This document shows positions 1,348-22,208 of a stretch of 64,000 nucleotides of DNA, one piece after another. How positions within the stretch are numbered: the first letter of the stretch is position 1; the number at the start of each line of letters is the position of its first letter. The position numbers and the translations under genes are program-made. The notes beneath the pieces were generated by a model. It was not told the DNA's origin. It did not search any database and was given only the letters and a program-made list of their open reading frames with translations. This DNA is from Candidatus Poribacteria bacterium (GTDB taxonomy: Bacteria; Poribacteria; WGA-4E; WGA-3G): positions 65,889 through 129,888 of the forward strand of contig JAPPII010000061.1 of the NCBI GenBank assembly GCA_028820845.1, in the 5' to 3' direction.

Positions 1348-2958
1348 ATGTTTGACGGGTATCGTCCGAACCAATTCGGACCTGGACGTTCGGCTGTTAT
1401 TTGCCAACACGGGGCTGTTGCAACGAGTCAACCACTTGCGGCGCAAGGTGGATTGCAAATTCTGCGCGACGGTGGCAACGCTTTTGATGCAGCGGTCGCC
1501 ACGGCTGCAATACTCAACGTCGTTGAACCGATGTCAACCGGTATCGGCGGGGATGCCTTTATGCTGGTTTACCAGCCTCAAGATGGCGTAATCCGAGGCT
1601 TAAACGCGAGTGGGAGGGCACCTTACGCTGCGGAATCCGAATTCTTTACCAAACAGGGGTTAGTTAGTATTCCTGCCTTCGGGAGTATGTACGCCGTTAC
1701 AGTCCCTGGTACAATTGATGGGTGGGCAACACTCTTAGAGGAATGTGGAACGATGTCGTTAGCAGAAGTGCTTCAACCTGCTATTGACTACGCTGAGAAA
1801 GGTTTCCCAGTGAGCCCTCAGATTTCGCTTGCGTGGCAAGAAAGTGCTGCAATGTTGGCACAGCATCCAGATACAGCGCAGACCTATCTTACTAACGGAA
1901 AAGCACCAGCACCGGGCGAGATATTTCGACAACCCAACCTCGCGCGGAGTTTTCGACGCATTGCAGAAGGCGGTCGGGACGCATTCTATAAAGGTGAGAT
2001 TGCCGAAAAAATTGTAAAGTTCTCTGATGAAAATGGAGGTTTATTGACTTTACAGGATTTTGCCGAACACAGATCTGATTGGGTGGAGCCAATTTCTACC
2101 GATTATCGCGGCTATGATATCTATGAGATTCCACCGAATGGACAGGGCATTGCTGCGCTACTCGCACTTAATATCGTTGAAGGGTTTGACCTCGGAACGA
2201 TGGGACATAATAGCCCTGAACATCTACACTATGCCATTGAAGCGATGAAATTAGGATTCGCGGATCTCTACAAATATGTAACAGATCCAACATTTGTAGA
2301 TGTTCCCGTAGACGGACTACTGTCTGACGCTTATACGCGGTGCCAACGCGCTCGCATTTCACCAGAACGGGCAAATATGGCACCGAATCCAGGGCTTCCT
2401 TCAATGGGCAGTGATACTGTATATCTCTGTGCAGTTGACAGTGAACGAAACGTTGTCTCCTTTATTAATAGTATTTTTGCTGGGTTCGGTTCACACTTAG
2501 TTGCCGGTGATACAGGTATTGTGTTGCAAAATCGAGGGGCAGGTTTCTCCCTTGACGCGGACCATGCTAACTGTATTGCTCCGCATAAACGGACGCTGCA
2601 CACAATTATTCCCGGGATGATTGCTCGAAATGGGGCACCTCTGGTTACGTTCGGAGTCATGGGTGGACAGATGCAAACACAAGGTCATTTACAGTTTGTG
2701 TGTAATCTCGTAGATTTCAATATGGACGTTCAGAATGCGTTGGACGCGCCTCGGTTTCGAGTGATGGATGATTCGCGGGTTATACTGGAAACGGGTATTC
2801 CGATGAATACACAGGCAGCGTTGGCGCAAAAAGGGCATCATATCATACCTGGCAGCACTTTCTTTGGTGGCGGACAAGCCATTTTTGTCAATCCGGCCTT
2901 TGATACGCTCATTGCGGGTTCGGATCCGAGGCGTGATGGTTGTGCGGTCGGTTATTGA
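1348..2958 (+). CDS. ggt: gamma-glutamyltranspeptidase
   Basis: 536 aa ORF. It shows GGT family hallmarks (AVATSQPLAAQ.G..IL..GGNA.DAAVA, GIGGD.FMLVY), the autoprocessing Thr context GSDTVYLCAVD, and MGGQMQ near the C-terminus. Confidence 0.85.
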   Translation: MFDGYRPNQFGPGRSAVICQHGAVATSQPLAAQGGLQILRDGGNAFDAAVATAAILNVVEPMSTGIGGDAFMLVYQPQDGVIRGLNASGRAPYAAESEFFTKQGLVSIPAFGSMYAVTVPGTIDGWATLLEECGTMSLAEVLQPAIDYAEKGFPVSPQISLAWQESAAMLAQHPDTAQTYLTNGKAPAPGEIFRQPNLARSFRRIAEGGRDAFYKGEIAEKIVKFSDENGGLLTLQDFAEHRSDWVEPISTDYRGYDIYEIPPNGQGIAALLALNIVEGFDLGTMGHNSPEHLHYAIEAMKLGFADLYKYVTDPTFVDVPVDGLLSDAYTRCQRARISPERANMAPNPGLPSMGSDTVYLCAVDSERNVVSFINSIFAGFGSHLVAGDTGIVLQNRGAGFSLDADHANCIAPHKRTLHTIIPGMIARNGAPLVTFGVMGGQMQTQGHLQFVCNLVDFNMDVQNALDAPRFRVMDDSRVILETGIPMNTQAALAQKGHHIIPGSTFFGGGQAIFVNPAFDTLIAGSDPRRDGCAVGY

Positions 2959-2975
2959 GGCATCAGGGAATTTTC

Positions 2976-3004
2976 TTGACTTTTGGGGCGAATTAAAGTA
3001 TAAT
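2976..3004 (+). promoter_or_regulatory. near-perfect sigma70 promoter (TTGACT-17-TATAAT) ahead of gltB
   Basis: TTGACT at 2976-2981, a 17 nt spacer and TATAAT at 2999-3004. This implies a ~345 nt 5' leader before the ATG at 3355. Confidence 0.55.
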
Positions 3005-3354
3005 ATTAACGGTAGTAGATGACTTTGGCAGAATAACTGAAGACCGAATCACATAAGCCCGCCAAGCCGGTTGTGAATCACTCATGTGATTCCAATGGCT
3101 CTCTCTTGCCCTGGGGCGCGCTATCTCCGGCAGGATACGAGTAGCCAGCGTCCGTAAAACCGTAAAGAGATTCTATCCAATCTTTAAAACGGAGTCCGTT
3201 TTCCGGTTGTTTGTACCCTTAATAAAAAAGGGCAGGGCTGAGGCATGTGAACCGCACCCTAAAAATTAAAATACAAGATAGCGGCGGTAGCAAATTCGCT
3301 TTACGATATCAATGCAAGAGAACATAGAAGAACGTATGGAGAATCAGTTGACAG

Positions 3355-6300
3355 ATGTATAGAGATTTAAATGAAAAGGATGCCTGTGGTGTCGGTTTTG
3401 TCGCGAACCGTTTTGGGAATCGGAGCCACGAGATTATTGAGATGGCGACGCAAGCGGTTACGAACTTGACACACCGGGGCGCGGTGGCGGCTGATGCAAA
3501 GACAGGTGATGGCGCGGGTATCTTAACACAAATTCCGGAGAAATTATTTCAAAAACAGTTGGCGAAACTCGGAGTTCGCTTGGACGCGATAACTGACCTG
3601 GGTGTGGGAATGATTTTCCTACCAAGGCGCGATCAGGACGCGCAGCGACAAAGCCGAGCACTCGTTGAAAAGACGTTGCAACAGTATGGTATGCCATTTC
3701 TCGGATGGCGTTCGGTCCCGGTTAATACGGCTGCGCTTGGCGATAAAGCATTAGAAACACTGCCGGAAATTCAGCAGGTATTGGTAGGGCGACCAGAGCA
3801 ACTCTCTGACGACGATTTTGAGCGGTCGTTGTATTTGATATGTAAAGAACTGGAACACCGTGTTGCAGCGGCTTCGCTGGATGACGAATTCCATATCGCC
3901 TCTTTTTCACATCGGACGATCGTCTACAAAGGATTGCTGGTAGCACCCCAGTTGGTGCCGTTTTATCTTGACCTAAAAGATTCGGATTTCCAAGCAGCAC
4001 TTGCTGTTTTCCATCAGCGCTATAGCACGAATACCTCTTCCACCTGGATGCTTGCCCAACCCTTCCACATGCTTGCACACAATGGTGAAATTAACACCTT
4101 GATGGGGAATCGGAATTGGATGCGGGCGCGTGAAGCCGACTTACAATCCCCCCTCTGGAATGAACATATCCAAAAACTCGTTCCGATTATTAACAAACAA
4201 GGGAGCGATTCAATGAGCTTGGATAACGTGTTAGAGTTGTTGACACACTCTGACCGTAGTATCTTGCACGCCATGATGTGCTTGATCCCAGAAGCTTATG
4301 AGCAGATTCCGGATATGCCGGATGTGTTGAAAACCTGCTACGAGTATCTTTCTTGTGTTAGTGAACCGTGGGACGGACCGGCGGCTGTCGCCTTTACGGA
4401 TGGTGTTGTTGTCGGCGCGAGTCTTGATAGAAATGGACTACGTCCCGCACGCTACAAAGTCACAGAGGATGGCACGGTCGTCATGGGGTCCGAAGTTGGC
4501 ATCATTGAACTTGATGAAAGTCGGATCATTGAAAAAGGTCGTTTGGGCCCCGGACAGATGATCGCTGTAGATACATCAGAAGGCAAATTGTTGAAAGATT
4601 CGGAGATTAAGCACAGTATTGCCAATCAGAAACCTTATGCTGAATGGGTTCAGAAAGGCACTGTAACCCTTCCTACCGATAAAATCAGTTCATCTGCTAC
4701 GGCGGAGACCGTTCCTGATCAGCTTCCTATATATCAGAAAGCCTTCGGATATATGACAGAGGATATAGAGCGATTTATCAAACCGATGATAACGGAAGCG
4801 AAAGAGGCAGTCGGTTCAATGGGTGATGATACGCCACCTGCTGTGATTTCTCGGCATCCGCGTTCGCTCTATAGTTACTTCAAACAACGTTTTGCGCAAG
4901 TTACAAATCCACCTATTGACTCAATCCGAGAGCGTTTGGTAATGTCGCTGACAACACACTTGGGGCGACATCATAGTTTGCTCACGGAAACGCCAGCGCA
5001 CGCTCGGCTCATTCGGCTACCCTCGCCAATTTTGACAAATACGGGCTTACACGCACTGCGGGAACTTGATATACCCGATTTTCAAGTGGAAACACTTTCT
5101 GTCTGTTTCCCGGTGGCTGCAGGTAAACAGGGCTTGGAAGATGCACTGGAAACGTTATGTCAACGCGCCTCTAAGGCAGTCGATGCTGGAAAAACGCTCC
5201 TTGTGTTGAGTGACAAAGATGTTAATTCTGACTTCGCACCAATTCCTATGGCACTTGCTGTTGGTGCTGTGCATCATCATCTGATCCGTGAAGGAAAGCG
5301 GATGCGAGCGAGTCTCATCGCTGAAACTGGAGATGCAAGAGAAGAGCATCATTTTGCTGTGCTTCTTGGTTATGGCGCAGCGGCGGTTAACCCCTACCTC
5401 GCGATTTCAACGATTGCCCAACTTGCCGCGGACGGTGAATTTGAAGAACTGACGGCAGAGAAAGCGATTGAGACCTATAAGGAAACTGTCGAAAAAGGTA
5501 TCCTGAAAATTATGGCGAAGATGGGTATTTCGGCGGTATCAAGTTACAGGGGAGCGCAAATTTTTGAAGCGCTCGGTATTAATGCGACGGTTATTAATAA
5601 GTGTTTTACAGGTACTACTTCTCGCTTAAGTGGCATCGGTTTTGCAGAAATCGCCGCTGAAACGCTTCACTTCCACACAAAAGCGTTTTTAGAAATTGAT
5701 GACGATGTTTCACTGGAAGAAGCAGGTTACTTCCGATTTCGGCGAAACGGGGAATTTCATGCGTTCAACCCGACGATGTTTAAAGCACTTCACAAGTTTG
5801 TTAAGGGTGGTGAGTCGGAAGATTATGATAAATATGCTGCTGCTGTTGAAAGTGGAGAGCCCTCCAGTTTACGGGATCTGCTTGCGTTCGGACCGAGTAC
5901 GCCTATTCCAATTGAGGAAGTGGAACCCGCAGAGGATATTGTTCGACGTTTCACAACCGGTAGTATGTCTTTTGGCGCATTAAGTCGTGAGACGCATGAA
6001 ACCTTAGCAATTGCTATGAATCGTCTTGGTGCGAAATCGGGAAGCGGAGAAGGCGGCGAGAATAGTACCCGCTTCAAACGTCAACCCAATGGGGACCTCG
6101 CCTCCAGCGCGATTAAGCAGGTAGCATCAGGACGTTTCGGTGTAACGCCAACATATCTCGCCTCGGCGCGGGAATTGGAAATCAAGATGGCACAAGGATC
6201 GAAACCGGGAGAGGGTGGGCAAATTCCAGGGCACAAGGTGACCGCTGAAATTGCCGCACTTCGACACTCTATCCCCGGGGTGCCACTGATTTCACCACCA

Positions 6301-7987: not shown

Positions 7988-8410
7988 TCAGTCTTCTTCC
8001 GATACCGCAAAAGCGATTTCGAGCCCCTCCGTTTTACTGGAGCGTTGTTTCGCTCGTTCTACCACGTCAATGACGACACCGTGTTTTGCACGTTTGTCCG
8101 CCTTGATAATCAAAGTGCTAATCTGGTTTTCATGTGCGGCAATGAAAAGTTCCATATCTTCCAGAGTTAACATTTCCTGATCATCAATCGATATGCGTCC
8201 GTCAGTACTAATGAAAAGGTTGTACTTCTTGCGTGTGAATTCGTGCTTCGTAGCGGAATCGGGTAAGGTGACGGTGAAAGGCGGAGGAACCCGCATAACA
8301 GCAGACACCATGAAAAAGATCAGGAGCAAGAATACACAATCAATCATAGGTGCCATCGGGATGTCATCATCATCGCCCGTTTTTTTCCGTCGACTCATGT
8401 TCAAAGCCAT
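7988..8410 (-). CDS. exbD: ExbD/TolR biopolymer transport protein
   Basis: 140 aa ORF. N-terminal PMAPMIDCVFLLLIFFMVS transmembrane anchor followed by a periplasmic domain typical of ExbD/TolR. Confidence 0.8.
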   Translation of the reverse strand: MALNMSRRKKTGDDDDIPMAPMIDCVFLLLIFFMVSAVMRVPPPFTVTLPDSATKHEFTRKKYNLFISTDGRISIDDQEMLTLEDMELFIAAHENQISTLIIKADKRAKHGVVIDVVERAKQRSSKTEGLEIAFAVSEED

Positions 8411-8462: not shown

Positions 8463-8912
8463 TCACTCCCTTGCGACGATAGCGAACCCGATTTTGTCTA
8501 TACCTGCCTGTTTCGCTATATCCATCACCTGAACGATCTGTTCATGAAGGACTTCTCGCTCGGATTGGATAATCAGCATGCTTGTCGCTTCCTCTGGTGC
8601 GTTGATGAACTGGTTAAACATTTCATCAATTTGGACGACAGTGTCGTTCAGCACCATAGTGCCTCTATCTTCACCGGGTTCCGGATTCGCGATTCGGACA
8701 GTCAGCCCTTTCGGTTTATCAGGTGAAGGTTTCCCTGGTGGGGGCAACTGCACCCGAAGCCCTGGAATGGGTGAGAAAGTTGTTGACACCATGAAGAAGA
8801 TCAGGAGCAGGAATACGCAATCAATCATAGGTGCCATACTGAGTGTTGGCGGCTTACGTTCTCTGATTTTCGTCGCAAGCAAACTCAATTTGGCTTCACC
8901 ATTTTGTTGCAT
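8463..8912 (-). CDS. exbD: ExbD/TolR biopolymer transport protein (paralog)
   Basis: 149 aa ORF. It carries the same SMAPMIDCVFLLLIFFMVS anchor as the neighbouring gene. Confidence 0.8.
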   Translation of the reverse strand: MQQNGEAKLSLLATKIRERKPPTLSMAPMIDCVFLLLIFFMVSTTFSPIPGLRVQLPPPGKPSPDKPKGLTVRIANPEPGEDRGTMVLNDTVVQIDEMFNQFINAPEEATSMLIIQSEREVLHEQIVQVMDIAKQAGIDKIGFAIVARE

Positions 8913-9025: not shown

Positions 9026-10015
9026 TTAGGCTTCGCCTTCACCAACAATCAGCTGGTTCACAATCTCGGTGGAAACCTGAGAGATTTCGACCATGTGTCT
9101 GTTAACCCAGCTATCAAAGAGTTGGAAGAAAATCAGGCAAGGAATAGCAACTGTCAAGCCAGCAGCAGTTGTAAGGAGCGCCTGTGAGATACCACCTGCG
9201 AGCTGCTGTGGGTCACCCGTCCCTTCAAGTGCGATTGTAGTAAAGGCACTAATCATACCTGTAACAGTTCCCAGCAAGCCGAAGAGCGGAGAAACGACTG
9301 CGACGGTACCGAGGACCGGCAGGTTTCTTTCGAGTTCAGGAATTTCAAGGAGACTTGCTTCTTCGATTGCTTCCTGAATTTCCTCTTTAGTAATATCACG
9401 TTCTTCAATTTGCGCTTGACTGTATCGAAGCAGTCCAGCTTTAAGGACGTTAGCGAGGGGCCCGCCAGCTTCTTCACAAATCGAGACGGCTTCCATAATG
9501 TTCTCTTTCCGGAGGGAATCAGCGATACTGGCGATAAACTGTTCAGTTCCAATTCGGGAACGACTCCGGACAAAAGTGAAGAGCCTTTCGATAATGAAGG
9601 TTAGTGCGGTGATAGAACAGAGTGCCAGTGGCCAAAAGACGAATCCGAACTTCTGGAAGAAAGTTACGATATTGTCTTTTTTCGTCATCTTGAGGGGGAC
9701 GAAGTGGTCACCGCCATTAACAACTGTAACAGGTTTACCAAGCCGGTCGCCGTATCCTTCTCTATAAATACTGATGAGGTAGCGGCCTGCTGGAATACCA
9801 GAACGTTCATAATCGCCGTTGGCATCGGTCATTGCCTCAAATTCTTCTCCACTTTGGGCAACAATTTTAACCTCAACACCGTCAATCGGATTTTGTGCAG
9901 TCGTCGTATCAACAATCTGACCACGAACAGTTCCGCCGCTGTCTTGTGCGAGAACCGTACCAGCCGACATGCCGATACAAGCGATTAACATTAACACTAA
10001 ACTAAAACGAGTCAT
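9026..10015 (-). CDS. exbB: MotA/TolQ/ExbB proton-channel protein with an N-terminal periplasmic carboxypeptidase-regulatory-like domain
   Basis: 329 aa ORF with a signal peptide. A GTVRGQIVD...DGVEVKIV...TDANGDYERSGIPAGRYLISIYREGY beta-sandwich is followed by three TM segments and the ExbB motif LGLLGTVTGMISAF...AGGISQALLTTAAGL. Confidence 0.8.
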   Translation of the reverse strand: MTRFSLVLMLIACIGMSAGTVLAQDSGGTVRGQIVDTTTAQNPIDGVEVKIVAQSGEEFEAMTDANGDYERSGIPAGRYLISIYREGYGDRLGKPVTVVNGGDHFVPLKMTKKDNIVTFFQKFGFVFWPLALCSITALTFIIERLFTFVRSRSRIGTEQFIASIADSLRKENIMEAVSICEEAGGPLANVLKAGLLRYSQAQIEERDITKEEIQEAIEEASLLEIPELERNLPVLGTVAVVSPLFGLLGTVTGMISAFTTIALEGTGDPQQLAGGISQALLTTAAGLTVAIPCLIFFQLFDSWVNRHMVEISQVSTEIVNQLIVGEGEA

Positions 10016-14504: not shown

Positions 14505-15911
14505 TCAACTTACAGCGGTTTTACTGAAATATTCAAGAAGTAAAACAGTTGTGATCCCAAGAACCGTTCCGCCGATTCCAGCAATAACAAGAATGAATCT
14601 GAGTTGTGGACTGACAGGAATCTTCCTCGGCACAGCACGATCGATGATTTCGATGTCTCCTACCTGATTGCGAGAAGATGTTAACTTGGATTCGGCATAT
14701 AATATCTCAGCTTCAAGTGAACGTTTGGCAATTTCTTCAGCAAGGGCGTTAGTCTTCTGAATTTTGGCTCCCATTTGCGTTAGAATAATCTGGTTTTCCG
14801 GGATTTTTTCCAGTAATTGCGCTAGTTCAGTTTCTAATGTATCGAGTTCTTGCTTGAGGCGTTTCGCTGCATTTTCATAACGCGAGAGGCTTGGGATGAA
14901 CGTTATCAACTGGTTCTTTATATAAGTATAATGTGCAGAGGGACCGGAGGTAACGGTAGTGGTCTTAGGTGAGATTTGTGTGTTTTTCTGCTGAATATCA
15001 GCGATTTGTGCGTCAAGCCCTTTCAATTCCGAGGGGGTCTTTCCTACTTTTTCTTTGTCAGCGACACGCTGTGATTCGAGGTTAAAAAGTTTCTCTTGCT
15101 GAAAGAGCCAGATAGGGTCATAGGTGGTGGTTTCGGAGAGTTGTGCTTGTTCGGGTAGGAGGCTTAATTGTTCCTGCAGATACGCGATATGGATACGCGT
15201 TGCATAGGCTTGTTGCTGATTTGTTTCAATATTTTCGCGAACATTGGCGTAACGTTCCAGCAAATTGGTAAACGTTGGGACCCATGTCTCTGAACTACCA
15301 TTTTGTCGAACGAATTGTAGAAGGGTATCTAAGTCCTTTTTTATTTGAGTTTGAATTTCTCCTTGTTTTTCTTCAAGAAATTCCATGCGTTTTCTAAGTT
15401 TCGTTTCTTCATCTCCACGCCGCAAGGTTTTCATGTCTTGCGCGAGTTGATTGACAAGAAGTGCTGCATTGCGCTCTCCCCCTTCTGCTTCAGTCAAAGC
15501 GATCGAAAGATGGATATAATCAGAATCTGGGTTTAGTTGTGCCTTCAGCATTCGTTTGAGTTTGCCGATCGGTGGGAGGAGAGCGACTGCGTCCGCGTTC
15601 CCGTTTTCTTCAAGATTCTCGATTGCTGTTTTCAGCATTGATTCTGTGGAGAAGCGGGCACTGATTGTTTCCATTTCCCGGCGGTCAATACCACCAGAGA
15701 GGACGCTTTGAAAGAGATTTGCTGAAGGAAGAGAAGGCGTTGCACTGGGTTGGACAAGCAACATTAGAGTGGAGGCAGCATACGTTTTAGGCAAACGGAG
15801 TGAAATAACTAAGGCAGTTCCTAATACCAGCAGAATACTTAGGCAGAATGTAAAGGTGTGTTTTCGGATGAGTTGAAAATAGTCACGTAGGTGTGCCTCC
15901 TGTTGCGACAT
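14505..15911 (-). CDS. Wzz/GumC-like polysaccharide chain-length determinant protein (no kinase domain)
   Basis: 468 aa ORF. It has an N-terminal TM plus a PKTYAASTLMLLVQP motif, a long coiled-coil periplasmic region and a C-terminal TM. Confidence 0.65.
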   Translation of the reverse strand: MSQQEAHLRDYFQLIRKHTFTFCLSILLVLGTALVISLRLPKTYAASTLMLLVQPSATPSLPSANLFQSVLSGGIDRREMETISARFSTESMLKTAIENLEENGNADAVALLPPIGKLKRMLKAQLNPDSDYIHLSIALTEAEGGERNAALLVNQLAQDMKTLRRGDEETKLRKRMEFLEEKQGEIQTQIKKDLDTLLQFVRQNGSSETWVPTFTNLLERYANVRENIETNQQQAYATRIHIAYLQEQLSLLPEQAQLSETTTYDPIWLFQQEKLFNLESQRVADKEKVGKTPSELKGLDAQIADIQQKNTQISPKTTTVTSGPSAHYTYIKNQLITFIPSLSRYENAAKRLKQELDTLETELAQLLEKIPENQIILTQMGAKIQKTNALAEEIAKRSLEAEILYAESKLTSSRNQVGDIEIIDRAVPRKIPVSPQLRFILVIAGIGGTVLGITTVLLLEYFSKTAVS

Positions 15912-17198: not shown

Positions 17199-18866
17199 TT
17201 ACCGTCGGCGTTTCGTCCGTTCTGTTGTACGGCTCCGACTGCTACTACTGCTACTGCTCCGTTTATCATCGTCATCATTACTACTTGAACTACTGCGTGA
17301 TACGCTGGAGCTTGAGGTCGTTGGACGCGTCCGCGTCTTTGTGGCAGTAGAACGGCTGACACTTGTACGTGATCTTGACGAACTTGCTGATGTACGTGAT
17401 CTTGACGAACTTGCTGAGCGGCTGACGCTTGTTCTCTCACGTGATGTGCTTGTTGTTCTTGAACGGCTAACGCTTGTGTTTGCGCGTGAGGTGTTAGAAC
17501 TTGAAGTCGTGCTCCTATACCTTGAGGCGGAGCCGCTGCTTGTACTTGAAGAGTACGAGCGGCTTGACGATGTAGTAGCCGGGCGTCTATAAAGCGGTGT
17601 TGTCCGCCGCGTCTCTATAGACCTGCTGTAGCGATTCACGCTCCGTGTTGTGTCATCAGGATAACGCCGCTGTTTACTGACCGTGTTTTCTGGAGCATAA
17701 ACACTCTGTCTTACGCTACTTTGGCGGAGCGTTGAGGCAGAGGCAAGGGCGCGCTGTTTCTGCGCAATAATTGTCCGACGCGCAACCCGCTCTGTTGTTG
17801 CCGGCGTCTGTTTCCGGTGGTTTTCGAGTGTCGTGCGAACACTTCTCCGAACTACTGAACGGTCTGCCTGTCGACTGTTTGCCGACAATCGGCTCCGACT
17901 GTATTGCCGACGCGTTGACTCATGCTGCGTGCTCCACTTATTCAACCGAGTCCGTCGCTGATAAACTTTCGGTGTGCCACGGTAGTACGAGTGGTAAGAG
18001 CCATAATACGGGGAGTAGTAGCGATAATACGAACTCGGATAATAGCCACGGTAGCGTCCGAGGTATCCCCCATAATACGAACGAATGGAGAGATAGTGAT
18101 GATCGTAGATCGGATAACTCCATCGGAGGTAGTAGTCGTAGTCTGTCGCGTAATAGACTGGACCATCGTAAAAGTAGAGATAAGTATAACGGTGCCATGG
18201 GCGCCAACGATATGTCGGCGTGTATCGTTGAATTACTCTAACTTTCGGCTGCCTGCGATAGCTGGATACTTCAATATGCTCTACGTCAATCTGTTCGCCC
18301 CCTTCAGCAACGATGTGTAGTTCCATCCATCCATCTTTGACATGACCCACAGCCGGAATTTTGATGCGTTCGGATCGGTTTTTCGCTCGAAGAACGAAAG
18401 TGTCGCCGTAACGCGTCTCACTGGCGTTTTCATCATAGTAGCCGCGTCGTGTTGCCTCTCGCTTGGTGTTGCGAATCCAAGCACGTCCAGCGATGGGCTC
18501 TTCATAGTCCTCAATCTCTAAACGATGCGGTTCTCCGCGATATCGCACCAGAACCTCAATATACTGTGTTCCGCTTGGAATTTCAAAGAGGTATACCGCA
18601 CTTGCAATCGCGAATTCGTAATCATCAGTGTTCTGCGCAGAATTTGCCCATGCGGTGAGTCTTATGCCATCTTCAAAGCGCGGACTCGCAGTAATCGTCG
18701 CGCTGCCTCGTTCTATCCACTCATCGACCTCATTTGCTACGCGGTGCTCACGACTGAGCCGATCTGCATAGTAATCGTAATCCGCAGCAATGGGGCTTAG
18801 CAACCCAACAAATAGAAAACAACTGATCACGCATAATGCGCTAAAAACGGAAATCCGGGTCTTCAT
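17199..18866 (-). CDS. secreted protein with a Tyr/Arg-rich then Ser/Arg/Thr-rich low-complexity C-terminal half
   Basis: Start taken at MKTRISVFSALCVISCFLF (ATG at 18866, GGAGG 7 nt upstream). A globular region of ~230 aa is followed by YYGGYLGRYRGYYPSSYYRYYSPYYGSYHSYYRG, then ~200 aa of SRSRTS-type repeats ending in DDDDKRSSSSSSSRSRTTERTKRRR. Confidence 0.6.
   Translation of the reverse strand: MKTRISVFSALCVISCFLFVGLLSPIAADYDYYADRLSREHRVANEVDEWIERGSATITASPRFEDGIRLTAWANSAQNTDDYEFAIASAVYLFEIPSGTQYIEVLVRYRGEPHRLEIEDYEEPIAGRAWIRNTKREATRRGYYDENASETRYGDTFVLRAKNRSERIKIPAVGHVKDGWMELHIVAEGGEQIDVEHIEVSSYRRQPKVRVIQRYTPTYRWRPWHRYTYLYFYDGPVYYATDYDYYLRWSYPIYDHHYLSIRSYYGGYLGRYRGYYPSSYYRYYSPYYGSYHSYYRGTPKVYQRRTRLNKWSTQHESTRRQYSRSRLSANSRQADRSVVRRSVRTTLENHRKQTPATTERVARRTIIAQKQRALASASTLRQSSVRQSVYAPENTVSKQRRYPDDTTRSVNRYSRSIETRRTTPLYRRPATTSSSRSYSSSTSSGSASRYRSTTSSSNTSRANTSVSRSRTTSTSRERTSVSRSASSSRSRTSASSSRSRTSVSRSTATKTRTRPTTSSSSVSRSSSSSNDDDDKRSSSSSSSRSRTTERTKRRR
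17365..17418. repeat. 27 nt perfect tandem duplication inside the SR-rich coding region
   Basis: GTACGTGATCTTGACGAACTTGCTGA(T/G) occurs twice in tandem. This corresponds to the repeated SxSSRSRTS peptide units. Confidence 0.7.
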
Positions 18867-19324
18867 GAGAATCCTCCTATCTTGACCCTCCCACACCTAA
18901 AGGAGTAGGATTCTTCCTTCAACGCAGTATGCCCGCCTGCCATACCCACCGAAGTGTCTGACGTAATTTTGGGTCTTACTTCTGCTCCAGAAGCGTTTAG
19001 CCTCTCGGTATGCCCTACCGCGAGGGTTTCTTTTCTTTTCGTCATGATTTTTTCTATCTCGGTTCTCTGATGAAGATAGCTCTTGGGCGACTCAGGTTTA
19101 CCGCAACTTGTCCCTCTGGGGATCCGCCAATTCTCACTATCGGTGTTTAACGCTACACATACGGTGCCAGTTGATTGCCATCGCAATGTGGACTTCGGTT
19201 CGGCTTACAGTGTAGGGACACTTGTCTCAAATCACCTTTTAGATACTCCCGCACGAAACACGCAGGACTGACCCAAAGCTAAAGCATTAGGATTTTTAAG
19301 TATTATCTTCAAAGTGTTGCAAAA

Positions 19325-19353
19325 ATGATACAATTTCCTTCAAGAATTGTCAA
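19325..19353 (-). promoter_or_regulatory. sigma70-like promoter (TTGACA-17-TATCAT) for the SR-protein operon
   Basis: On the reverse strand, TTGACA lies at 19353-19348, followed by a 17 nt spacer and TATCAT at 19330-19325. This implies a ~450 nt leader to the ATG at 18866. Confidence 0.45.
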
Positions 19354-19372: not shown

Positions 19373-20107
19373 TCAATCTTTAGGAATCAGTTTAATTCCT
19401 CTTTTTTTGGCATGTTCCCGGGCGAGCGGCGTAATGATCGCGCCGTTTGGATAAACTAACTCGCGCACATTCGCATCCAGATTTGAAATAGTCGATGCAC
19501 TAATCAAAGACTTTTCCGAAGTGGCAGGTGAACTGTCTGTTTTCTCCGTGACGAATTCGGCAATTTGCATCATCGGGACCAATTGAACGCCAAGTTCGGA
19601 CAAAAGGTTTACATATTCAGCTTCGATAGCACCGATTTTTGTAGAAGTCTCACCTTGATTAAGTGCGTCGGAGGCGGCTATAACCTTCTTTCCTTTAGAG
19701 AGTGCTTCAAAAACGAGATAACTACACGGTGTATCCACCAATCTTAACGCAAGTTTCGCGACCATTGGATGCGAAAAGACAGGGAGGACGATTTGCTGAT
19801 AGGTCGCCACAAAAGCTGATATATCGCTGAGCGCATTTTCCTCCAAAGTGTTATCTTCACCAAACGCAGCATGAATCGATTCAAGATTTATGACTTTAGT
19901 TGCGAGTTCGGACAGAATTATTGTAATTTTCCACCCATTCTGCTGGCATATCTGAAGCTGCTTGAGGGGCTCATCCAATTCAAATTGTGTAGCACCAAAG
20001 ATAGCGAGTAGTTGTTTTTCGTGTACAGCCTGCGTCGTAGTAGTTGTCTGCTCTTGTAGTACCTTCTCTACGACTTTCCTAATCTGGTCAATCAGTTCAT
20101 GATTCAT
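19373..20107 (-). CDS. flavoprotein-like (Rossmann) protein with an N-terminal amphipathic helix; BMC-associated by context
   Basis: 244 aa ORF. The N-terminus MNHELIDQIRKVVEKVLQE is followed by a poly-Thr linker. The core resembles the flavoprotein fold (VLPVFSHPMVAKLALRLVDTP...KKVIAASDA). The C-terminal motif is AIITPLAREHAKKRGIKL. Confidence 0.4.
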   Translation of the reverse strand: MNHELIDQIRKVVEKVLQEQTTTTTQAVHEKQLLAIFGATQFELDEPLKQLQICQQNGWKITIILSELATKVINLESIHAAFGEDNTLEENALSDISAFVATYQQIVLPVFSHPMVAKLALRLVDTPCSYLVFEALSKGKKVIAASDALNQGETSTKIGAIEAEYVNLLSELGVQLVPMMQIAEFVTEKTDSSPATSEKSLISASTISNLDANVRELVYPNGAIITPLAREHAKKRGIKLIPKD

Positions 20108-20139
20108 GTTAGTTCAAAACTATAGGAAATCTGCGAATT

Positions 20140-20853
20140 TTATCCTGCATCGCTCACGATTTCGACAGGTTCGCCGCCTTTCAGACCAGCGGCGTTGGAG
20201 TCATCGGTATCCAAGTGCATTTGGAGCGCATATCCCTCAGAGATCTTCGGACGAACGTTTTCAAGTGTTAAAGCGCGCTCACCGGGAAAGCGTACTTTCA
20301 GAAGATCATTCTCGTGGATACCAAGAGCCTCAGCCTCTTTAGGCGTCATGTGAATGTGTCGTGTTGCGCAGATCGCGCCTTCTTCCAAATAGACGCTTCC
20401 TGCCGGACCGATGAGCGTAATCGGTTCGGCACCAGCAAGGTCGCCGGAGTCTCGAATAGGTGGGTTTAATCCGAGTCGAATTGCTTCCGTTTGTGCAACT
20501 TCGACTTGAGAGTAGTCCCGTACGGGACCGAGAATGCGAACGGCTTCGATAGCCCGCATCCGTTTTCCAACGATAGTTACTGTTTCATTTGCCGCGAATG
20601 CTCCAGGCTGATAGAGCGGGGCGTAGACAGTGAGTTGATGTCCAGCACCATAGAGGATTTCGAGGTGCTCCTGTGTTACATGGGCATGTCTTGCGGAGAC
20701 CCCGACTGGAATCTGCTGCTGCTGTGCAACGGCATCGCATGCGCGATTCCCCGCATCACAGGTTCGCAAAGCACAACCGCTACACGCCTGATCTGTCGTC
20801 AGTCTATTGACGACACGGCGGGTAATCAACTCAATAAGGGCTTGGTCTGGCAT
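20140..20853 (-). CDS. pduL: phosphate propanoyl/acyl-transferase PduL (BMC-type phosphotransacylase)
   Basis: 237 aa ORF with two PduL repeats (VSARHAHVTQEHLEILYG...; ICATRHIHMTPKEAEALGI...). An N-terminal amphipathic helix ALIELITRRVVNRL is followed by a 4-Cys linker, ACSGCALRTCDAGNRAC. Confidence 0.8.
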   Translation of the reverse strand: MPDQALIELITRRVVNRLTTDQACSGCALRTCDAGNRACDAVAQQQQIPVGVSARHAHVTQEHLEILYGAGHQLTVYAPLYQPGAFAANETVTIVGKRMRAIEAVRILGPVRDYSQVEVAQTEAIRLGLNPPIRDSGDLAGAEPITLIGPAGSVYLEEGAICATRHIHMTPKEAEALGIHENDLLKVRFPGERALTLENVRPKISEGYALQMHLDTDDSNAAGLKGGEPVEIVSDAG

Positions 20854-20898
20854 TTGTGATTCGCCTTTTTGGTTAGGAAATCCCGATTAACAAATAGT

Positions 20899-21174
20899 TT
20901 ACGCTTTGCTTAAGATGGTTTCAACGTCAGCGTGCGGACGTGGAATCACGTGAACAGAGACAACTTCACCTACACGTGCAGCGGCTTCGGCACCAGCATC
21001 CGTTGCAGCTTTTACTGCGCCGACATCACCACGAACCATGACGGTTACGTAACCCCCTCCAACTTGTTCATAGCCGACAAGTTGGACATTTGCTGCTTTC
21101 ACCATCGCATCGGCGGCTTCGATAGTACCAACCAAGCCTCTCGTTTCAATTAAACCCAACGCATCTCCGGTCAT
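20899..21174 (-). CDS. BMC-H shell protein (PduA/EutM/CcmK-type hexamer)
   Basis: The internal ATG at 21174 gives [81 protein letters not shown], a near-consensus PF00936 sequence. The 30-codon N-terminal extension in the track ORF looks spurious. Confidence 0.9.
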
Positions 21175-21320
21175 ATTAATTCTAATAGCCTCCCATTGAA
21201 AACTTAGCAATGAACGTGTGAGTAGCTGTAAGATATTCTGTGTGTGCAATACGGAAGAGCCCACATGAAAACGGAGGAAACTGAGCAGTAATGCATAAGT
21301 ACCTCACTCTATATAATATA

Positions 21321-22208
21321 TCACATTTTTTGAAGTTTTTCAACAAAAAAACTGAAAATACGTCTGTTTGCCTCATGGATCTCTTTTTCTACCTTAGCAA
21401 CTTCGCCGAGTTTCTGGTAGATTAAGGCACGCCAATAGTGGGCTTGTATGAGGGCGTTAGGATCACCTTGCCACGTTTGGATTGTTTCAGTAAGAAGTTC
21501 TAAGGCGTGTGTATAGTCGGCAATTGCTGATGTATGTGCCCGTGAGTGTTCGCGAATTAGCCCACGGCTCATGTAAGCGCGAGCAAACCGTGGCTCCAAA
21601 GCGATGGCTCGGTCCAGGTCTGCCAATGCAAGTTTTAAACGGTCTTTATCACCTTGGGTGAAAAGTTGAAAGTGGGTATTACCGCGGGAGTAGTACGTTA
21701 CTGCACTGGGCTGCCGCTTAATCACAGTATCATAATCGGCGAGCGCATTTTGAACATCGCCATGTTCAAGATGGGTTTGTGCGCGTTTCCCCATGACACG
21801 TGGACTCCACCTTTTTTTTAGAGAGGCGGTATAGTCTGCGATAGCACGCTGCGCGTCATCCAAGGCACGATACGCATCGCCGCGACTTGCATAAGCGTCT
21901 GCTTGGTATCGTTTGAGTTCTAAAGTTCGGGTGTAATCCGCTATTGCTGTTTTATAGTCTCCAGCGCGGTAATAGGCAAGACCACGTTTCACATAGGCTT
22001 CCGCATACCGTGGCTCAATTTCAACTGCTTGTGTGAATGCCGCTATAGCCTGCGGAATTTTCCATGTTCTGAGCGATAGGGTCCCTTTTTGGACGTATTC
22101 CTGTGCTTGTGGATTTTCCCCTTTTATTGCGTCCCATGTTACAAAACGAGAGGCAAGAAGGATAGTGAGAATCAGCACGGGAGTCATAATATAAATGAGT
22201 GGTCGCAT
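21321..22208 (-). CDS. TPR-repeat protein with an N-terminal membrane anchor
   Basis: 295 aa ORF with at least 6 degenerate 34-residue repeats (A..Y..RG.AY...GDY..AIADYT.ALEL.P). Confidence 0.75.
   Translation of the reverse strand: MRPLIYIMTPVLILTILLASRFVTWDAIKGENPQAQEYVQKGTLSLRTWKIPQAIAAFTQAVEIEPRYAEAYVKRGLAYYRAGDYKTAIADYTRTLELKRYQADAYASRGDAYRALDDAQRAIADYTASLKKRWSPRVMGKRAQTHLEHGDVQNALADYDTVIKRQPSAVTYYSRGNTHFQLFTQGDKDRLKLALADLDRAIALEPRFARAYMSRGLIREHSRAHTSAIADYTHALELLTETIQTWQGDPNALIQAHYWRALIYQKLGEVAKVEKEIHEANRRIFSFFVEKLQKM

Follow-up and report, generated by a model that had tools for sequence, protein, structure and literature searches.

The BMC-A operon of a Candidatus Poribacteria bacterium, a known piece of a scattered FRAG2-type microcompartment, encodes a probable PduM-related core-shell tether

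Introduction

FRAG compartments, a fragmented class of bacterial microcompartments (BMCs), are common in candidate phyla. In the FRAG2 type, shell genes lie at several genomic sites and include a triplet of BMC-P genes (Sutter et al., 2021, Nat Commun 12:3809, Supplementary Data 2); no encapsulation peptide (EP) matches were reported for FRAG2 in that catalogue. In Poribacteria, the region named BMC-A contains two ExbD genes, a MotA/ExbB gene with a carboxypeptidase-regulatory domain, an exopolysaccharide protein, PduL and a shell marker, with the shell gene and PduL on one transcript (Kamke et al., 2014, PLoS One 9:e87353; Jahn et al., 2016, Sci Rep 6:35860; PMC3909097, PMC5087111). The third gene beside them was annotated as hypothetical in these publications, and the fold, EP and decayed FMN motifs of its product and the Cys4 linker of PduL were not described.

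Three protein groups of other BMCs are closest to the product of this third gene. PduM of the Salmonella and E. coli Pdu compartment (PF15953, TIGR04493) has a signal sequence at residues 1-23, as determined by experiment, and its loss partly separates core from shell (PMC12108088); it was described in 2025 as being without homologues outside Pdu compartments. EutQ of the Salmonella Eut BMC bridges shell and cargo, and its helices H1/H2 bind the shell (PMC12487888, Sci Adv 2025). Flavoproteins of PF02441 are catalogued as 'PvmL' of PVM and also in FRAG6/FRAG7, EUT2B/2D and GRM3; a literature search on PvmL and PF02441 in microcompartments returned nothing beyond Axen 2014.

Results

The operon and its neighbourhood

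The window (the whole stretch of 64,000 nucleotides that was analysed) belongs to Candidatus Poribacteria, the name carried by the homologues of the third protein. Exactly as initially annotated, its sequence contains three tightly spaced minus-strand open reading frames (Table 1), separated by 45 and 32 nt. GGAGG lies 14 nt ahead of the BMC-H ATG. The BMC-H protein shows 73% sequence identity to E. coli PduA and 76% to PduJ. The succession BMC-H, PduL, third gene is retained across the taxonomic order, even where the third gene is only 30-40% identical, and the three genes form a single conserved, predicted operon. Profile matches, sequence identities and a predicted fold bore out the gene identities initially proposed (a PduA/EutM-type BMC-H, PduL and a Rossmann/flavoprotein-like protein). 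Neither BMC-P, nor a second BMC-H, nor a PduP-type aldehyde dehydrogenase (AldDH) was found on the window's contig, in line with their reported absence from the window.

The window agrees gene for gene with the BMC-A region, including the two ExbD genes, the MotA/ExbB gene, the Wzz-like gene, hypotheticals and a shell gene beside pduL. TonB/ExbD genes are present in the region. Synteny of the downstream envelope genes (a secreted S/Y/R-rich protein, DUF5683 and the Wzz-like protein) is kept across the order.

Table 1. Features of the operon and neighbouring genes, in positions of the window
Feature	Position	Strand	Remark
BMC-H shell hexamer gene, PduA/PduJ/EutM type, 91 aa	20899..21174	-	PF00936 E=1e-31
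PduL phosphotransacylase gene, 237 aa	20140..20853	-	PF06130 E=3.9e-67, NF011652, 5CUO
Gene of 244-aa PduM-like / BMC-associated protein, predicted flavoprotein fold	19373..20107	-	PF02441 superfamily, eut_hyp-like
Promoter-like site TTGAAA-17-TATATT, extended TG, 5' of BMC-H gene	21315..21343	-	consensus pattern match only
PduL putative N-terminal EP helix, residues 1-22, MPDQALIELITRRVVNRLTTDQ	20788..20853	-	conserved phylum-wide
PduL Cys4 linker CxxC-x4-C-x6-C, residues 24-39	20737..20784	-	EP to catalytic domain
244-aa protein, putative EP helix, residues 1-21	20045..20107	-	model helix 3-21
244-aa protein, predicted Rossmann/HFCD-flavoprotein-like domain, residues 32-187	19547..20014	-	degenerate FMN motifs
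244-aa protein, C-terminal module of ~47 residues, residues 198-244	19376..19516	-	common to PduM and eut_hyp C-termini; weakly EutQ N-terminus
ExbD	7988-8410		window neighbour
ExbD, second gene	8463-8912		window neighbour
MotA_ExbB + CarboxypepD_reg protein	9026-10015		window neighbour
Wzz/GNVR protein	14505-15911		window neighbour

The 244-aa protein and its flavin motifs

Profile matches of the 244-aa protein were below threshold (PF02441, E=0.012, 15.7 bits against a Pfam gathering score of 22.7; TIGR02536, 2e-8; PduM, 1.5e-3). Its AF2 model (pLDDT 90.5) was matched by Foldseek to UbiX, EpiD, CoaC and MrsD at E 7e-7 to 5e-5 with a target-normalised TM of ~0.6, and the family profile matched EpiD at 5e-8. 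The protein is predicted from this model to have the HFCD/UbiX flavoprotein fold, as the initial annotation had suggested. PF02441 was matched by 75 of 85 family representatives, TIGR02536 by 83 and the PduM models by 30. Of 151 genomes of the phylum, 141 carry the gene.

An active encapsulated flavin enzyme or electron shuttle, carrying out a redox step such as NAD+ regeneration, is one reading of such a protein. It draws on the fold, on the frequent flavin-binding domains in BMC loci remarked by Axen 2014, and on the three Fe-alcohol dehydrogenases of the genome, whose lack of an EP leaves cofactor recycling otherwise unexplained. Most of the wider PF02441/eut_hyp family retains the FMN motifs FTGGxxG and TxNT, whereas the poribacterial branch is without both: the window's protein reads FGATQ at the site of FTGGxxG, and PVFSHPMVAK at that of PxLTxNTAAK. 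Of 80 members of the wider family, 47-66 carry the T/G/G and T/N/T residues of these motifs. None of 18 sequences from the poribacterial order does; in every one of them (18/18) the residues that bind phosphate are exchanged at both motifs, often for Asp or Pro. Two positions of the domain, K118 and D125, are invariant, so that some ligand binding may persist. In one genus the gene is degraded in 9/9 genomes, all of which retain BMC-H, PduL and three BMC-P genes. The third protein also evolves much faster than its neighbours, with 25-88% identity across the same loci against 52-94% for PduL and 77-94% for BMC-H. Judged from these substitutions, the poribacterial protein appears to have lost its flavin site. 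A flavin enzyme is considered unlikely, and the flavin-dependent step initially proposed was not upheld, given the replaced motifs and the genus that keeps the set with a degraded gene.

The C-terminal module and its relation to PduM and EutQ

The C-terminal module matched eut_hyp (7.5e-8), PduM (1e-3) and, weakly, residues 2-46 of EutQ (E=0.012), which bind the shell. Alignment of the 244-aa family to the PduM alignment with hhalign gave a probability of 93.5% (E=2.3e-7) over the last 67 columns only. Against the two PduM models, the single protein reached 18.4 and 18.1 bits, where the cut-offs are 50 and 179, over its C-terminal 50 residues only; against the eut_hyp model it reached 34 bits (cut-off 152.6). 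In a classic pdu operon, a 28%-identical family member takes the pduM slot, with pduL on one side and pduN on the other. On these scores the 244-aa protein ranks as a relative of the PduM family, not as a member.

Like the 244-aa protein, PduM has an N-terminal amphipathic helix, a homologous C-terminus and a gene directly 3' of pduL. The 244-aa protein differs in being longer (PduM has 163 aa) and in its complete central HFCD flavoprotein-like domain. A reduced flavoprotein fold for PduM was unsupported: the AF2 model of enterobacterial PduM (pLDDT 78) gave no flavoprotein match in Foldseek at E<=0.001. Homology to PduM is therefore demonstrated for the C-terminal ~67 residues alone, with position and N-terminal helix in addition. 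The BMC flavoproteins of PF02441 and TIGR02536 eut_hyp share the fold, the organisation in three parts (an EP helix, then a Rossmann domain and a C-terminal module) and the same association with BMC-H and PduL. In EutQ the module is N-terminal rather than C-terminal, and is joined to a cupin acetate-kinase domain instead of a flavoprotein fold.

N-terminal encapsulation peptides

The N-terminal helices initially quoted for PduL and the 244-aa protein are both present, amphipathic and conserved. The TTTTT linker reported for the latter is also present; as a conserved feature it was rejected, and residues 22-31 form a polar linker that varies among relatives. The pattern LxxxIxxEVxxxL is conserved in the N-termini of the 244-aa family (85 representatives, <50% identity). 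The helices exceed what chance would give: by hydrophobic moment, the N-terminus of the 244-aa protein stands at the 99.1st percentile of 8853 ORF N-termini of the genome, although that of PduL stands only at the 81st, and an EP HMM ranked both high. The PduL helix lies outside the solved catalytic domain and is also conserved in PDU-locus PduL.

An EP HMM was trained solely on 78 non-poribacterial family N-termini and run on 17,706 protein termini of the genome. A 475-aa AldDH encoded on another contig (C102), which begins MAQIDEKQIEEIVSQVLRTLQQD and bears an EP, ranked 1st, PduL 2nd and the 244-aa protein 11th; the E-values of 0.25-0.28 are individually not significant, and the ranks alone are informative. 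No further convincing EP candidate, N- or C-terminal, was found genome-wide with this HMM. The best additional matches were a signal-peptide protein (contig C94) and a basic tail (C110). From their sequences, the AldDH, PduL and 244-aa helices are assigned to one EP class, and PduL and the 244-aa protein are predicted to be encapsulated in the compartment.

PduL

PduL covers the entire PF06130 profile, and scored 233.9 bits against NF011652 (cut-off 209). Its catalytic domain (residues 47-232) was aligned to the solved PduL structure at E=1e-40, and the RHxH motifs at residues 55 and 165 are both present in all relatives. The motif CSGCALRTCDAGNRAC quoted in the initial annotation was found. 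The Cys4 spacing is constant in the window PduL and in 17/17 order-level relatives, and the linker is missing from 5/5 outgroup PduLs. It is lineage-specific and invariant.

Shell and core genes elsewhere in the genome

A search of the whole genome for PF00936 and PF03319, as initially proposed, recovered two BMC-H and three BMC-P genes on four contigs. The window (contig C12) holds the first BMC-H with PduL and the 244-aa gene. The second BMC-H is followed by the AldDH on C102, one BMC-P lies on C36, and two BMC-P form a tandem pair on C42. Both BMC-H genes are single-domain (91 and 93 aa), contain the PRPH motif and are 71-76% identical to PduA/PduJ; no tandem-domain PF00936 match was found in the genome. 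With 43% identity to PduP, the AldDH is the sole such match in the genome, where PduL is likewise single-copy.

Closed relatives show equal scattering, over hundreds of kb to Mb. In one closed single-contig relative (G054), BMC-H genes are at 2.27 and 4.63 Mb and BMC-P genes at 4.94 and 2.81 Mb. Three BMC-P genes are present in 12/12 relatives, with one BMC-H gene in 2/12 genomes and two in the others, and an EP-bearing AldDH occurs in every genome examined.

These features correspond to FRAG2: shell genes at several sites (four loci here, Mb apart in closed relatives) and a BMC-P triplet (here one single gene and one tandem pair). No essential difference between FRAG2/BMC-A and the window was found. 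The operon was already known: it has been published as BMC-A, one part of the scattered BMC of FRAG2 type in sponge-symbiont Poribacteria, the FRAG2 assignment being based on taxon and shell-gene inventory. The initial annotation had named, as the outcome that would speak against it, a fragment of an already classified BMC locus; comparison with the catalogued BMC types identified exactly such a fragment, since the locus is catalogued as FRAG2 and published as BMC-A. Of its two alternatives, a satellite of a main BMC locus elsewhere was the nearer, although a main locus was sought in the genome and is absent, the genes being dispersed over four loci.

The other alternative, in which one BMC-H and two cargo proteins make up a complete minimal compartment or a shell patch at the membrane without need of the other shell genes, is very improbable. 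The three genes do form a tight conserved unit, the syntenic envelope genes downstream would suit a patch, and the shell protein was highly transcribed and localised as a membrane ring with no visible polyhedra (Jahn et al., 2016). However, the rest of the shell set and the AldDH are at three other loci, and all genomes examined keep the three BMC-P and the EP-bearing AldDH, usually with a second BMC-H. PduL would be without substrate unless an acyl-CoA-forming AldDH were present, and the shared EP class of the AldDH, PduL and 244-aa helices also argues against a separate module.

Signature enzyme search

No signature enzyme was found in the genome. PduCDE, PduGH, PduS, PduB and PduU had no homologue by tblastn, and EutB and a glycyl-radical enzyme were absent from the genome search. 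Candidates that were set aside were a class II aldolase, with a weak partial match only (a 361-aa protein on C40, without EP), a single 354-aa DeoC/LacD aldolase gene (C125, without EP) and the three Fe-alcohol dehydrogenase genes, none with an EP. For BMC-A, Jahn et al. (2016) proposed an organelle of B12-dependent 1,2-propanediol utilisation. This proposal would fit the PduA/J-like shell, PduL, PduP-like AldDH, PduQ-like Fe-alcohol dehydrogenases and PduO-type adenosyltransferase of the genome, and the TonB/ExbD genes of the region could import B12, but it is hardly credible in a genome estimated to be 95.5% complete that has no PduCDE, PduGH, PduS, glycyl-radical enzyme or EutB, and PduL, AldDH and shell proteins belong to the common equipment of metabolosomes.

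Discussion

Proposed function

The operon is probably one of four dispersed pieces of a FRAG2-type aldehyde-oxidising metabolosome, in which the 244-aa protein would act as a PduM/eut_hyp-related core-shell tether and not as a flavoenzyme. In such a compartment, BMC-H would build the shell facets and the three BMC-P from two further loci would close the vertices. PduL would be recruited into the lumen by its N-terminal helix and would recycle free CoA from the acyl-CoA produced by the EP-bearing AldDH. The 244-aa protein may be a long-form PduM/eut_hyp relative whose flavin-binding residues have decayed in Poribacteria; it would tie core and shell together, anchored in the cargo by its N-terminal helix and on the shell by its C-terminal PduM/EutQ-like module. 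The membrane-ring localisation of the shell protein (Jahn et al., 2016) weighs against this picture of the compartment. We infer both the tethering role and the loss of flavin binding from motif and module comparisons. A more specific version is offered tentatively, as somewhat doubtful: the third protein may be a flavin-less descendant acting purely as a PduM/EutQ-type tether, and the invariant Cys4 knuckle of PduL a metal- or redox-dependent packaging switch, in an organelle expressed from four separate loci.

Significance

The locus adds nothing to the BMC catalogue, having been published in 2014, 2016 and 2021. What is gained concerns the third gene of the FRAG2/BMC-A operon, listed so far as hypothetical: a predicted fold, a family and a testable role of its product as a shell-core tether. 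AldDH, PduL and the putative tether would share one EP class, in a BMC type without catalogued EP matches, and the conserved Cys4 motif of PduL is brought to notice. If the more specific, somewhat doubtful version of the tether reading is true, PduM would represent the reduced last stage of a lineage that once consisted of flavoenzymes. The minimal parts list (two BMC-H, three BMC-P, AldDH, PduL and the putative tether) would make heterologous reconstruction of the compartment feasible.

Operon structure and gene identities

Three closely spaced ORFs lie on the minus strand at 19373-21174, with intergenic gaps of 45 and 32 nt. The initial annotation had read them as a minimal BMC operon of BMC-H, pduL and a gene for a 244-aa protein (the third gene), and its description of the genes was accurate. 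The BMC-H was 73% identical to PduA and 76% identical to PduJ of E. coli. PduL scored 233.9 bits on NCBIfam NF011652 (cut-off 209), and the solved PduL 5CUO was aligned with its residues 47-232 (E=1e-40). The third protein gave sub-threshold scores with PF02441 (E=0.012), TIGR02536 eut_hyp (2e-8) and PduM (1.5e-3). Promoter-like sites were found upstream of the BMC-H gene (pattern match TTGAAA-17-TATATT) and right after the third gene, and the three genes therefore appear to form a single unit.

The operon is followed by a secreted-protein gene in every order-level relative, abutting the third gene in some lineages. In the window this gene has a leader of ~450 nt and its own strong promoter-like site.

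Coordinates of the operon and neighbouring features in the window
Feature	Position	Strand	Description
ExbD	7988-8410		
ExbD	8463-8912		
MotA_ExbB+CarboxypepD_reg	9026-10015		
Wzz/GNVR	14505-15911		
Secreted-protein gene	17199-18896	-	565 aa; signal peptide; long S/R/Y-rich tail; no Pfam match
Leader of secreted-protein gene	18897-19353		
Promoter-like site of secreted-protein gene	19353-19325		TTGACA-17-TATCAT
Third protein	19373-20107	-	244 aa; sub-threshold matches only
PduL	20140-20853	-	237 aa; PF06130 E=3.9e-67, full profile covered
Cys4 linker of PduL	20737-20784	-	C-x2-C-x4-C-x6-C; PduL residues 24-39, between EP and catalytic domain
BMC-H	20899-21174	-	91 aa; PF00936 E=1e-31

Comparison with published loci

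Kamke et al. (2014) described BMC gene groups (A-D) that are conserved among Poribacteria and in which EutN domains outnumber BMC domains, and poribacterial loci with PduL or aldehyde dehydrogenase (AldDH) were classed as satellite-like by Axen et al. (2014). In the BMC-A region a single, strongly transcribed polycistron comprises the shell gene and pduL, and the neighbours are two ExbD, a MotA/ExbB protein that carries a carboxypeptidase-regulatory domain, hypothetical proteins and an exopolysaccharide protein (Jahn et al., 2016). The window has the same neighbour genes, with DUF5683 and a SnoaL-like gene between them. The initial annotation had taken the locus as either a satellite of a main locus elsewhere or a reduced module with a flavin-dependent step, a reading to be refuted if the locus was a fragment of a classified one. 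This is the case: the operon is real and conserved, but it is known, as a fragment of the FRAG2 microcompartment already catalogued for Poribacteria (Sutter et al., 2021).

Dispersal of the shell genes

The assembly (G000; 5.69 Mb, 125 contigs, estimated completeness 95.5%) contains exactly two PF00936 and three PF03319 genes, which are distributed over four contigs. Contig C102 carries the second BMC-H, followed directly by a 475-aa AldDH starting MAQIDEKQIEEIVSQVLRTLQQD, which is 43% identical to PduP and the sole such match in the genome. A single isolated BMC-P is found on contig C36 and a tandem BMC-P pair on contig C42. Twelve relatives, mostly closed single-contig genomes, have the same inventory (1-2 BMC-H and 3 BMC-P in every one), with the pieces separated by hundreds of kb to Mb; G054, for example, has its BMC-H genes at 2.27 and 4.63 Mb, and its BMC-P genes map to 4.94 and 2.81 Mb. 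As this spread recurs in mostly closed genomes, the dispersal is genuine rather than an assembly artefact, and a main BMC locus is absent.

The C102 fragment (excerpt L006, 6439-9363) adjoins a 518-aa ORF and a gene for isocitrate dehydrogenase. On C42, a tandem array of 39-nt period (G000:C42:28630-29031; excerpt L008, 5031-5432) precedes the BMC-P pair by a few kb; one of its frames encodes successive GYKPHLPLE(Y/C)(I/V)R units.

Predicted encapsulation peptides

At its N-terminus PduL has M-x-D-x-A-L-I-E-L-I-T-R-R-V-V, which is kept phylum-wide and in outgroups, including the PduL of a classic pdu operon. The N-terminal helix pattern of the third protein (L-x-x-x-I-x-x-E-V-x-x-x-L) is kept in most of 85 family representatives of pairwise identity below 50%. 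Hydrophobic moments of the third protein (0.75) and AldDH (0.76) were in the top 1% of 8853 ORF N-termini, and that of PduL (0.51) was at the 81st percentile. An HMM of the encapsulation peptide (EP), trained solely on 78 non-poribacterial family N-termini, was run on 17,706 N- and C-termini of the genome, ranking AldDH 1st, PduL 2nd and the third protein 11th; the E-values (0.25-0.28) are non-significant alone, and the ranks carry the weight. By these patterns the three proteins share a predicted EP class. No convincing further EP-bearing candidate was found by the HMM among the N- and C-termini genome-wide.

Family and fold of the third protein

Close homologues (74-89% identity) carry the name Candidatus Poribacteria. 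At E<=0.001 an exhaustive search yielded 325 representative clusters, most of them 240-290 aa long and aligned over their full length. Among the 85 aligned representatives, PF02441 was matched by 75, TIGR02536 eut_hyp by 83 and PduM models by 30; PDB matches of the family profile were EpiD, dipicolinate synthase B and CoaC. The AF2 model (pLDDT 90.5) consists of a helix (3-21), a linker, a Rossmann domain (32-187), a disordered stretch (192-197) and a small beta-alpha-beta module (200-244). Foldseek matched it to UbiX, EpiD, MrsD and CoaC (E 7e-7 to 5e-5), so 'flavoprotein-like', as the protein had been labelled, is correct at the level of fold. PF02441 flavoproteins ('PvmL') are listed among BMC components by Sutter et al., with mention for FRAG6 and FRAG7.

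In a deep-branching lineage of the phylum (L037, G002:C112:3000-9500) there is a family member whose FMN motifs are intact. A 488-aa radical SAM/SPASM gene separates it from pduL; a PfkB sugar kinase gene precedes, and BMC-H is not adjacent.

A family member of 28% identity sits between pduL and pduN in a complete pdu operon, the slot occupied by pduM in E. coli. The family was matched to a PduM alignment of 20 sequences by hhalign over the last 67 columns (93.5% probability, E=2.3e-7), and the isolated C-terminal 53 residues matched the C-termini of eut_hyp (7.5e-8) and PduM (1e-3) and EutQ residues 2-46 (0.012). However, the window protein scored far below the curated cut-offs of the PduM and eut_hyp models, and Foldseek gave no flavoprotein match for the PduM AF2 model (pLDDT 78). 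We therefore call it a relative of PduM, outside the PduM family proper. In PduM a signal sequence has been proven experimentally for residues 1-23; when PduM is lost, core and shell become partly uncoupled, and the protein has been described as lacking homologues beyond Pdu compartments (PMC12108088). In EutQ, helices H1/H2 bind the shell and H3/H4 bind cargo EPs (PMC12487888).

Flavin site and probable dispensability

Flavin motifs were compared between 80 wider family members and 18 sequences of the poribacterial order. The loop following strand 1 is F-T-G-G in the wider members (with T in 62, G in 66 and G in 47), and their second motif is P-x-L-T-x-N-T (T in 61, N in 62, T in 52), whereas none of the 18 keeps any of these residues: they have D or G at position 38, A (17 sequences) or T (1) at 39, T or A at 40, S at 112, P, S or A at 114, and M or L at 115. 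Despite this replacement K118 and D125 are invariant, and variants of IFGATQ and PVFS(H/Y)PM(A/V)AK occur in 120/120 close homologues. The gene is single-copy in 141/151 genomes of the phylum (20/22 genera), and had no match in 9/9 genomes of one genus, where it is degraded although BMC-H, PduL and three BMC-P are kept. In G020, a genome of this genus (L040, G020:C1:1852000-1860000; locus 2645-3824), a 56-aa C-terminal ORF (locus 2912-3082) among short repeat-like ORFs is all that is left between pduL, which is intact, and the secreted-protein gene that follows; two BMC-H and three BMC-P are retained. The third protein also diverges much faster than its neighbours: across the same loci identity was 25-88% for the third protein, 52-94% for PduL and 77-94% for BMC-H. 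Motif loss, gene loss in one genus and fast divergence speak for a structural and dispensable role rather than an essential flavin-dependent step.

Cys4 linker of PduL

The linker spacing is invariant in 17/17 order-level relatives and the window, and the motif is absent from 5/5 outgroup PduLs (sister classes and a PDU PduL). The spacing resembles that of a zinc knuckle, and the motif may be a metal knuckle. The BMC and BMC-flavoprotein literature covered here, gathered with other aims, does not mention it.

Compartment function

The core enzymes AldDH and PduL, with one cytosolic acetate kinase, fit a generic aldehyde-oxidising metabolosome. Diol dehydratase, reactivase, PduS, EutB and glycyl-radical enzyme were not found in the genome, estimated 95.5% complete; the 1,2-propanediol proposed as BMC-A substrate (Jahn et al., 2016) thus lacks a signature enzyme here. 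Class II aldolase and DeoC-family matches, the sole such matches and without EPs, were rejected as signature enzyme. The single acetate kinase gene of the genome has a bona fide PF02441 flavoprotein (UbiX/CoaC-like, E=8e-43) encoded ~3 kb away (G000:C125:73104-77854), a proximity that is probably coincidental.

The new details are four: the third-gene family and its fold, its decayed flavin motifs, the putative shared EP class and the PduL Cys4 linker.
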